In this document: positions 1,192 to 1,354 of the stretch, one piece after another
Layout of the letters: each line of letters opens with the position of its first letter
How positions within the stretch are numbered: position 1 is the first letter of the stretch
From: Candidatus Saccharimonadota bacterium
GTDB lineage: Bacteria > Patescibacteriota > Saccharimonadia > UBA4664
Reading direction: 5' to 3'
DNA: 28,159 nucleotides
Assembly: GCA_029237755.1 (NCBI GenBank)
Contig: JAQZBT010000001.1
Location: forward strand, 1-28,159
Made by a program: the position numbers and the translations under genes
Notes under the pieces: model-generated
What the model saw: only the letters and a program-made list of their open reading frames with translations
Databases searched by the model: none
Told to the model about the DNA's origin: nothing

Positions 1192-1214
1192 AAAAAAGCC
1201 GCTGCTGTGAGCGG
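1192..1214 (-). terminator. Intrinsic terminator (attenuator) upstream of the 84-aa gene
   Basis: Minus strand CCGCT-CACAGC-AGCGG (1214-1199) followed by CTTTTTT. The stem is short (5 bp). Confidence 0.6.
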
Positions 1215-1244
1215 TGCCTGGCTGGTCGGTGGGTGAGGGTTGAA

Positions 1245-1319
1245 TCAAGCAGCGTAACCAGGCACACGCAGACACATGTTGCAGCAGGGCATCATGGTGA
1301 CTGAGTAATGGCTGGTCAT
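1245..1319 (-). CDS. Leaderless 24-aa leader peptide rich in Met/Cys (MTSHYSVTMMPCCNMCLRVPGYAA)
   Basis: ATG at 1319 lies 6 nt after a TAACAT -10. Codons 9-16 are ATG ATG CCC TGC TGC AAC ATG TGT. TGA at 1247-1245. Same length and spacing as the Trp leader. Confidence 0.7.
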   Translation of the reverse strand: MTSHYSVTMMPCCNMCLRVPGYAA

Positions 1320-1325
1320 GGCAAG

Positions 1326-1354
1326 ATGTTAACGTTTGTTGAGTAAGCGGTCAA
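1326..1354 (-). promoter_or_regulatory. Sigma70-type promoter of the Met/Cys leader unit
   Basis: TTGACC (1354-1349), 17 nt spacer, TAACAT (1331-1326), 6 nt, ATG. Confidence 0.75.

Follow-up and report, generated by a model that had tools for sequence, protein, structure and literature searches.

A candidate ribosome-mediated attenuator with a leaderless Met/Cys leader ORF ahead of an orphan gene in a Saccharimonadota genome

The stretch of DNA analyzed here (hereafter the window) comprises the first 28,159 nucleotides (nt) of contig JAQZBT010000001.1 from the Candidatus Saccharimonadota assembly GCA_029237755.1, a soil metagenome-assembled genome of ~1 Mb that is 71% complete, has 59% G+C and belongs to the Candidate Phyla Radiation (CPR, or Patescibacteria). 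Between positions 1354 and 1192 of its minus strand lies a compact unit (hereafter u1) made up of a promoter, a short open reading frame (sORF) rich in Met and Cys codons, two overlapping hairpins and a U-tract, and this is followed by a gene for a basic protein of 84 residues. A preliminary description of this DNA had proposed a leader-peptide attenuator ahead of that gene. Comparison with an orthologous locus and with a family of related units strongly supports the proposal, and u1 probably attenuates transcription by a ribosome-mediated mechanism that relies on a leaderless leader ORF. That it senses Met and Cys through tRNA charging is favored on balance, with somewhat less assurance.

The leader unit and its gene

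The upstream neighbor of u1, a 286-aa gene on the same strand, ends at 1415. A promoter scan places a -35 box (TTGACC) at 1354-1349, the position at which 22 aligned units described below have TTGAC(A), and 17 nt further on a -10 box (TAACAT) at 1331-1326 that ends 6 nt short of an ATG; together they form a sigma70-like promoter (TTGACC-17-TAACAT, 1354-1326). The leader ORF (1319-1245) begins with this ATG, has 24 codons, ends in TGA (1247-1245) and encodes MTSHYSVTMMPCCNMCLRVPGYAA. Its codons 9-16 (1295-1272; ATG ATG CCC TGC TGC AAC ATG TGT) specify M-M-P-C-C-N-M-C, six of the eight being Met or Cys with Cys12 and Cys13 adjacent, and constitute the putative stall site. Within codons 17-21 lies the 5′ arm of a helix, P1 (GCG-U-GUGCCUGGU, 1269-1257), which was recognized from folds and from covariation; its 3′ arm (GCCAGGCAC-CGC) occupies 1222-1211. 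The last 4 nt of this 3′ arm (1214-1211) are also the first 4 nt of the 5′ arm of a predicted terminator hairpin, CCGCU-CACAGC-AGCGG (1214-1199, a stem of 5 bp), from which a single C separates a tract of six T (1197-1192). The Shine-Dalgarno sequence GGAAGG (1179-1174) follows 12 nt past the U-tract and 7 nt before the GTG (1166) that opens the 84-aa gene (1166-912). The gap between the end of the leader ORF (1245) and the gene (1166) contains nothing other than hairpins, U-tract and Shine-Dalgarno sequence. The U-tract is 26 nt from the GTG, too little for a separate promoter, and the 84-aa gene would therefore be transcribed solely through the terminator, with leader ORF and gene presumably sharing one transcript. 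The ORF, the Met/Cys cluster and the two pairings named in the preliminary description are all present at the coordinates given there.

How unusual is the Met/Cys block? Eight-codon segments with at least six Met or Cys codons occur at 3 loci genome-wide among 1.55 million, where 0.19 are expected from base composition. The cluster is rare, yet by itself it is within reach of chance in a genome-wide scan. The case for an attenuator rests on conservation and not on the cluster. The sORF scores negatively for codon usage, a measure judged uninformative for 24 codons rich in rare residues. A strain variant at 1305/1306 carries a 3-nt insertion (TTA on the minus strand) that duplicates Tyr5 and turns H-Y into H-Y-Y. 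It is the sole form in one soil sequencing run and coexists with the window's form in a second; no further variant was found across 600-2300 in four DNA runs.

The 84-aa ORF has coding-like codon usage (+0.21 per codon) and is the best of the six frames, and is therefore probably a real gene. Its product has no Pfam or NCBIfam match and matched only itself among 5.8 billion proteins. An exhaustive HMMER search returned one true homolog, P0003 (103 aa, 56% identity, matching over its full length), which is encoded on a contig (L012) from another soil metagenome, together with two further matches that are repeat proteins. Residues 4-33 (window 1157-1072, minus strand) resemble a unit repeated nine times in the metagenomic proteins P0002 (3150 aa) and P0004 (628 aa). 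The protein has a C-terminal tail rich in Lys, Arg and Gly, no Cys and one internal Met.

The start of the leader ORF deserves separate attention. Among ~870 coding-like genes called across the genome, the distance from a promoter-like site to the start codon peaks sharply at 6 nt (9 cases vs. a background of ~2), and the organism therefore appears to use leaderless mRNAs. ATG codons 6 nt past intergenic promoter-like sites are also 3-fold enriched, mostly ahead of long genes. The -10 box of u1 ends 6 nt ahead of its ATG, as in nearly all 22 family units (a few have 7 nt), and the prediction is a leaderless transcript whose first base is the A of ATG 1319. Short ORFs are not enriched at this spacing genome-wide (4 vs. 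a background of ~2.5), so that geometry alone is no proof of function, and short ORFs are common at 59% G+C. Could u1 then be a chance ORF in an ordinary intergenic region that happens to contain a promoter and a terminator? The two observations just given would allow it, but the ORF is kept in L012 and in 13 genomes of the same family with its geometry preserved, which effectively refutes this explanation and leaves it a negligible probability.

Conservation in tandem, in an ortholog and in a covarying family

A second contig of the same genome (C28, also L011) continues the window leftward, and the locus so extended holds four consecutive units, each consisting of a promoter, 6 nt, an ATG, an ORF of 22-37 codons, P1 and a terminator with U-tract. 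The first is u1 itself (window 1354-1192). The second, u2 (window 852-690, minus strand; MVSISHSFNAAVTAWWLVDAVRGH, with a Trp-Trp block), lies ahead of a 316-aa ligase-like gene; u3 (C28:421-590, plus strand; MTAIAFTSQTRACVCACAIAVVGSDV, with C-V-C-A-C) lies ahead of a PIG-L gene, and u4 (C28:1483-1645, plus strand; MISTSANIMWFFLLLGSAVPGQDS, with M-W-F-F-L-L-L) ahead of a 467-aa gene. The four can be aligned, having in common a GCC-ATG start, a G(C/T)GGTGnnnGG motif towards the 3′ end of the ORF and, ahead of a run of T, CACCGCTCC...GGAGCGG. Three of the genome's few short ORFs at the 6-nt promoter distance fall in this locus. As a separate observation, genes of the cluster each end in a G+C-rich, near-perfect hairpin without a U-tract just ahead of the next promoter (window 905-860 and 1405-1362, minus strand; C28:380-400 and 1435-1470), and the locus thus contains two kinds of hairpin, those of the leaders with a U-tract and those of the gene ends without.

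The contig that encodes the 103-aa homolog is syntenic (mreB, the 103-aa gene, a 316-aa gene with 66% identity, PIG-L and GCS2), and its intergenic gaps contain counterparts of all four leaders: u1′ (MTSHLSVNMMSCCTMCLRVPGYAA), u2′ (MVSTHHSFIAAAAACWCMLDAVRGD), u3′ (MTTTTFSSQTCVCVCACAIAVVGPDV) and u4′ (MISTSASIMWFFLLLGSAVPGQDS). According to the preliminary description, absence of the leader upstream of homologs of the 84-aa gene would have told against an attenuator; the sole homolog found has the leader, with every Met and Cys kept, and this objection therefore does not arise. The leader ORFs of u1 and u1′ are 89% identical in DNA sequence, compared with ~61% for the promoter region, 64% for the hairpin loop, 81% for the P1 3′ arm, terminator and U-tract, 88% from the U-tract to the gene start (including the Shine-Dalgarno sequence) and 72% for the first 63 codons of the downstream gene. 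The six Met/Cys codons are identical, the two spacer residues between them differ (P to S and N to T), the N-terminal residues drift freely and the bulged base of P1 has changed (CGT to CGC). Of the four local leaders, three have Cys codons, either themselves or in their orthologs. A DNA search of 41 relatives matched the locus only in its own genome, and a homolog of the upstream 286-aa gene in one relative (G010) shows no synteny.

A wider family emerged from a covariance model, R1, built from seven seed units and spanning P1 and the terminator region. Against it u1 scores 68.4 bits, although as a seed sequence, and the non-seed u2 scores 27.7 bits. In its own genome R1 finds only u1-u4 plus two weak extras (C25 and C67), both of which were rejected as further units as they are ordinary gene-end terminators. 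Of 25 other genomes in the same Saccharimonadales family, 13 contain matches, the best of which reach an E-value of 1e-13. Beyond this family a search of the order gave only weak matches, and none of 129 genomes in a class sample matched. Rfam gave no match in the whole window at the gathering threshold and chance-level matches only at E up to 10.

The R1 matches examined, down to ~23 bits, all contain an in-frame ORF of 22-37 codons that starts with ATG (GTG in one case). The start lies 6 nt (in a few, 7 nt) past TAnnnT, with TTGACA another 17-18 nt upstream, and in most of the 22 units the stop codon keeps a constant position with respect to P1. The frame is preserved by all length differences among the units, and the lone strain-level indel is one of 3 nt. 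This retention of frame through every length change is the main argument that the leader ORF is translated.

Helix P1 covaries across the family. In 26 distinct sequences 82.5% of the alignment cells hold standard pairs and 8 of 11 pairs have changed on both sides; none of 500 shuffles reaches these values and slid controls pair at 21-61%, with the caveat that the alignment was fitted to R1 itself. In 24 of 25 units, u2 being the exception, the P1 3′ arm and the terminator 5′ arm share 3-7 nt. A hairpin of 4-9 bp lies at or near a U-tract in 25 of 26 distinct R1 matches, with a gap of 0-2 nt in all but one weak match.

Conserved and covarying RNA of this kind would also be expected if the ORF were incidental and the 5′ leader an untranslated RNA structure that acts like a riboswitch or binds a protein. 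The DNA of the sORF is conserved uniformly between u1 and u1′ with no third-position bias, which fits such a leader, as does the negative codon-usage score. However, in nearly all units the ATG coincides exactly with the predicted +1, every ORF stays open and in frame over its 22-37 codons although lengths have changed many times, and the one indel between strains is of 3 nt; moreover, no Rfam family matches and there is no conserved structure 5′ of P1. An untranslated leader is accordingly improbable.

What do the encoded peptides have in common? A typical member of the family has a polar N-terminus, a hydrophobic block (e.g., MFLVVLILG, MIIVLFLG or FFLLLVVLII) and a tail of the form (P/S)-A-V-x-G-Q-x-x, the conserved A-V-x-G being the translation of the P1 arm GCGGUGnnnGG. 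In most members the block is a bland hydrophobic one of 7-10 residues, and in u1, u3 and G022b a Cys or Met/Cys block takes its position. In two further units the leaders MTATTISLINRQARLVEIILLPCGGWSRLV and MTVTTSSQINRQALLLAEIILLPCGGRSHV (L051 and L056; G020 and G016) precede an ATP-grasp protein; they appear similar to the way in which the E. coli ilvGMEDA leader ends (…VVVIIIPPCGAALGRGKA).

These peptides bear on a second alternative, nascent-peptide arrest of the TnaC or Erm-leader type, in which a small molecule, redox state or a metal would be sensed through the same RNA switch but not through tRNA charging. The C-C-x-x-C motif is kept in the ortholog and a C-terminal V-P-G is common to several units, as arrest would lead one to expect. 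Against this, the RNA helix accounts for the common C-terminal motif, and related units have Leu, Ile, Val or Phe in place of Cys, which is the pattern of amino-acid-specific leaders and not of one arrest motif. Arrest is thus unlikely, if a little less so than an incidental ORF. The earlier suggestion that the CCxxC peptide itself senses metal or redox state finds no support, given that most family members carry the plain hydrophobic block instead of Cys.

The proposed switch

The core of P1 is a pairing of GTGCCTGGT (1265-1257) with GCCAGGCAC (1222-1214) over 9 bp, one of them G-U, and it continues past a 1-nt bulge with GCG (1269-1267) against CGC (1213-1211). The P1 hairpin alone folds at -24.8 kcal/mol (z = -5.1), and none of 200 shuffled sequences is equally stable. 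Its 5′ arm ends 9 nt before the stop codon. The preliminary description had recognized the 9-bp pairing but called it a protector. The pairing is real; its role is a different one, since P1 holds four of the five nucleotides of the terminator 5′ arm and covaries family-wide, and it is therefore to be read as the antiterminator. An overlap of ~4 nt suffices in the well-studied trp leader of Bacillus subtilis. The terminator (5 bp plus U6) folds at -6.3 to -7.0 kcal/mol, and the earlier characterization of its stem as weak was correct.

A second pairing had been assigned the antiterminator role, that of CGCTGCT (1254-1248) with AGCAGCG (1206-1200). The two are exact complements, and their duplex (-13.3 kcal/mol) stands out from shuffles in u1 (z = -2.7). 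Neither the ortholog (z = -0.5) nor the family (mean z = 0) shows this, and the pairing was rejected as a conserved switch. A long hairpin between the codon block and the terminator 3′ arm (P0) was considered as a stand-in for a protector; it reaches z = -2.6 in u1 but is not strong in the ortholog, and is weak family-wide (mean z = -0.7, with p < 0.05 in 2 of 22 units), and it was set aside. Across the family units no conserved 1:2 protector helix was found, and the stretch 5′ of P1 is without conserved structure.

From these parts a working model can be assembled. The first transcribed base would be the A of ATG 1319, with a ribosome loading straight onto the 5′ end. If all 24 codons are translated, the ribosome would unwind or cover the P1 5′ arm in codons 17-21; with that arm removed, the short terminator (1214-1199 plus U6) would form and stop transcription 26 nt short of the 84-aa gene. 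At low levels of charged tRNA-Met or tRNA-Cys, the ribosome would stall in the Met/Cys block, best at codons 9-13, leaving the P1 arm free; P1 would then form, sequester four of the five nucleotides of the terminator 5′ arm and allow RNA polymerase to read through into the gene. Leaderless loading is assumed to make translation the default, in place of a conserved helix that enforces termination. In this model we infer that the ORF is translated, that ribosomes stall at its Met and Cys codons and that transcription actually terminates.

The model was explored with equilibrium folds in which a ribosome footprint was masked and the A site moved along u1 and its ortholog. In both, the probability of the terminator is at most 0.15 as long as the A site is at codons 9-13. 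Beyond these codons it rises to as much as 0.6-0.98, with dips in u1 to 0.19-0.26 at codons 17-18. The expected profile is therefore seen for u1′ and in part for u1; u2 always forms the terminator and another unit (G004) almost never does. Because of this inconsistency among other units, the masked folds are taken as weak evidence.

A number of observations weigh against this interpretation and are set out together here. In the same folds the terminator reaches only 0.02-0.04 at the last three ribosome positions of u1, because GCAGCGG also pairs with two u1-specific GCUGC repeats; one of these pairings is CGCTGCT/AGCAGCG, and neither is conserved. The terminator is as weak in u1′ as in u1, and no conserved helix enforces termination on untranslated RNA. 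The Met/Cys leader is known from two lineages only, and with 8 differences in 72 nt the chance of all 18 Met/Cys bases being kept is, as a rough estimate, ~0.09. Three of those eight differences are synonymous, and the eight show no third-position bias, so that much of the identity between u1 and u1′ could be due to conservation of the RNA. The Trp-Trp of u2 is Cys-Trp-Cys-Met in u2′, and the identity of a block can therefore drift. The 84-aa protein is an orphan, and any link between it and sulfur amino acids would be hypothetical. Finally, the locus was absent from all RNA runs searched, and the start site, 3′ end and translation of u1 remain predictions.

The gene cluster and known attenuators

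The genes that follow the leaders offer a further view of their role. The 316-aa gene behind u2 spans window 635-3 (minus strand) and C28:1-348 and is found at full length in L004:3106-4056. Its product has no Pfam or NCBIfam match and a profile-based sequence search of the PDB returned nothing. Its predicted structure, for which 24 homologs were used, has a predicted local distance difference test (pLDDT) score of 94.6, and the best Foldseek matches of this model are glutathionylspermidine synthetase, YjfC/YgiC and glutathione synthetases (E = 1e-6, probability 1.0, TM-score 0.58-0.60). The protein is, by its modeled fold, a putative ATP-grasp amide ligase like glutathionylspermidine synthetase (GspS). 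The PIG-L protein is nearest to the NCBIfam models BshB and MshB, with scores far below their cut-offs, and the ortholog in L012 of the 467-aa gene behind u4 has a weak GCS2 match. Across the family, the genes downstream of R1 units encode M20 peptidases (four cases), an ATP-grasp protein, GCS2-like proteins, PIG-L, the 316-aa family and orphans. The local cluster has the look of a pathway for making or trimming a peptide or thiol, which makes Cys-containing leaders plausible, and the neighboring genes are suggestive of a cysteine or peptide theme and of products that contain cysteine; the adjacent leaders u2 and u4 carry Trp or Phe/Leu blocks.

Such neighbors raise the question of whether the sORFs are small-peptide genes in their own right, each encoding a Cys-rich substrate or a precursor akin to ribosomally synthesized and post-translationally modified peptides (RiPPs) for the ATP-grasp, GCS2 and PIG-L enzymes, with the hairpin acting as a leaky terminator that sets a high peptide:enzyme ratio. 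The peptide is well conserved in the ortholog, u1, u3 and G022b have Cys-rich cores, and the adjacent enzymes make or cut amide bonds (GspS-like ATP-grasp, GCS2, PIG-L and M20 peptidase). However, four consecutive genes each have their own, different sORF, and most family members encode only the bland block of 7-10 hydrophobic residues. The conserved C-terminal A-V-x-G is a coding image of the P1 arm, the N-terminal residues drift freely between orthologs, and the overlap of P1 with the terminator would not be needed, yet is conserved. This is an unlikely reading, though the least unlikely of the alternatives weighed.

A hybrid of the two has also been considered, in which the Cys-, Met- and aromatic-rich peptides of the tandem leaders have a dual function: besides serving as sensors for attenuation, they would be made by the ribosome to supply neighboring amide-bond enzymes with substrates or primers (the ATP-grasp ligase resembling glutathionylspermidine synthetase, the GCS2-like ligase, the PIG-L amidase and the M20 peptidase). 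It is more improbable than any of the alternatives above other than chance. If true, each peptide- or thiol-pathway enzyme in a CPR episymbiont would be delivered with, and dosed by, its own mini-peptide.

Returning to attenuation as the favored explanation, the pairing of a leader with the 316-aa gene may be far older than the R1 sequence family. Short ORFs with aromatic patches lie ahead of distant homologs of this gene, with at least four Trp, Phe or Tyr per six-residue segment at 6 of 19 loci and at none of 19 on the reverse strand, and it is for this reason that the pairing may predate R1. Many CPR groups, among them Levybacteria, Moraniibacteria, Doudnabacteria and Paceibacteria, have homologs with ~30% identity. 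The patches (e.g., FYFWF, WYFYF, WFYFYF and HFYFLW) are often found ahead of the homolog in CPR genomes that are distant and AT-rich, ~100-300 nt upstream at L015, L016, L017, L032, L035 and L036.

How does u1 compare with attenuators already characterized? In the classical examples of E. coli and Salmonella (trpL, hisL, leuL, pheL, thrL and ilvL), as here, a cluster of sensed codons lies in a short ORF, a terminator is placed between leader and gene, and formation of the antiterminator is set by the position of the ribosome. Unlike these, u1 is predicted to be leaderless and has no Shine-Dalgarno sequence, and it contains only two conserved helices. Its block mixes Met and Cys, its target is an orphan gene and not a biosynthetic operon, and its host belongs to the Saccharimonadales within the CPR. 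It has no sequence similarity to Rfam leader families and, to our knowledge, no Met/Cys transcription attenuator of this type has been described.

In Corynebacterium glutamicum, leader peptides precede trpE, leuA, ilvB and aroF and are thought to act by transcription attenuation (PMC3890552). Small leader peptides in an organism rich in leaderless mRNAs are a feature shared with the present system. The C. glutamicum leaders, however, precede biosynthetic genes for the sensed amino acid, whereas those described here precede ligases, peptidases and orphans in a genome of ~1 Mb.

Members of the CPR have tiny genomes with few recognizable regulators and no amino-acid biosynthesis, and the question addressed by these leaders is how host supply is sensed. 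A conserved family of leaderless attenuators, if confirmed, would be a direct ribosomal reading of amino-acid supply in the CPR. No mention of “leaderless” or “attenuator” was found in the papers listed by a literature search on CPR, Patescibacteria or Saccharibacteria; the mechanism is a classical one, but was not found described for the CPR/Saccharimonadales lineage in these sources. In addition, u1-u4 give a handle on the function of a cluster that is conserved across CPR phyla.

The closest parallel is found in mycobacteria, where leaderless polycysteine sORFs are cysteine-responsive attenuators that make up a “Cys ribulon” (Canestrari et al., 10.1101/834739). In the characterized unit control is translational, by sequestration of the downstream ribosome-binding site, and the mshA operon, for a Cys-derived thiol, has the same hallmarks (Canestrari et al., 10.1101/834739). 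The likenesses are a leaderless sORF as first cistron, consecutive Cys codons and several units per genome that could respond jointly; comparable to the mshA case, PIG-L (MshB/BshB-like) and glutathione-synthetase-like genes lie under such leaders here. Differences are the intrinsic terminator and U-tract of u1 with an overlapping antiterminator, its mixed Met/Cys block, the lack of homology and the different phylum. As modeled, u1 works like the mycobacterial polycysteine family but is not a member of it: sequestration of the downstream ribosome-binding site was not found, and only a weak helix, of the U-tract with UACGGAA, touches the Shine-Dalgarno sequence in the u1 fold. The known case for sulfur amino acids has so far been that of mycobacterial cysteine, which is translational, and a terminator-based Met/Cys leader would extend attenuators of the classical kind to these amino acids.

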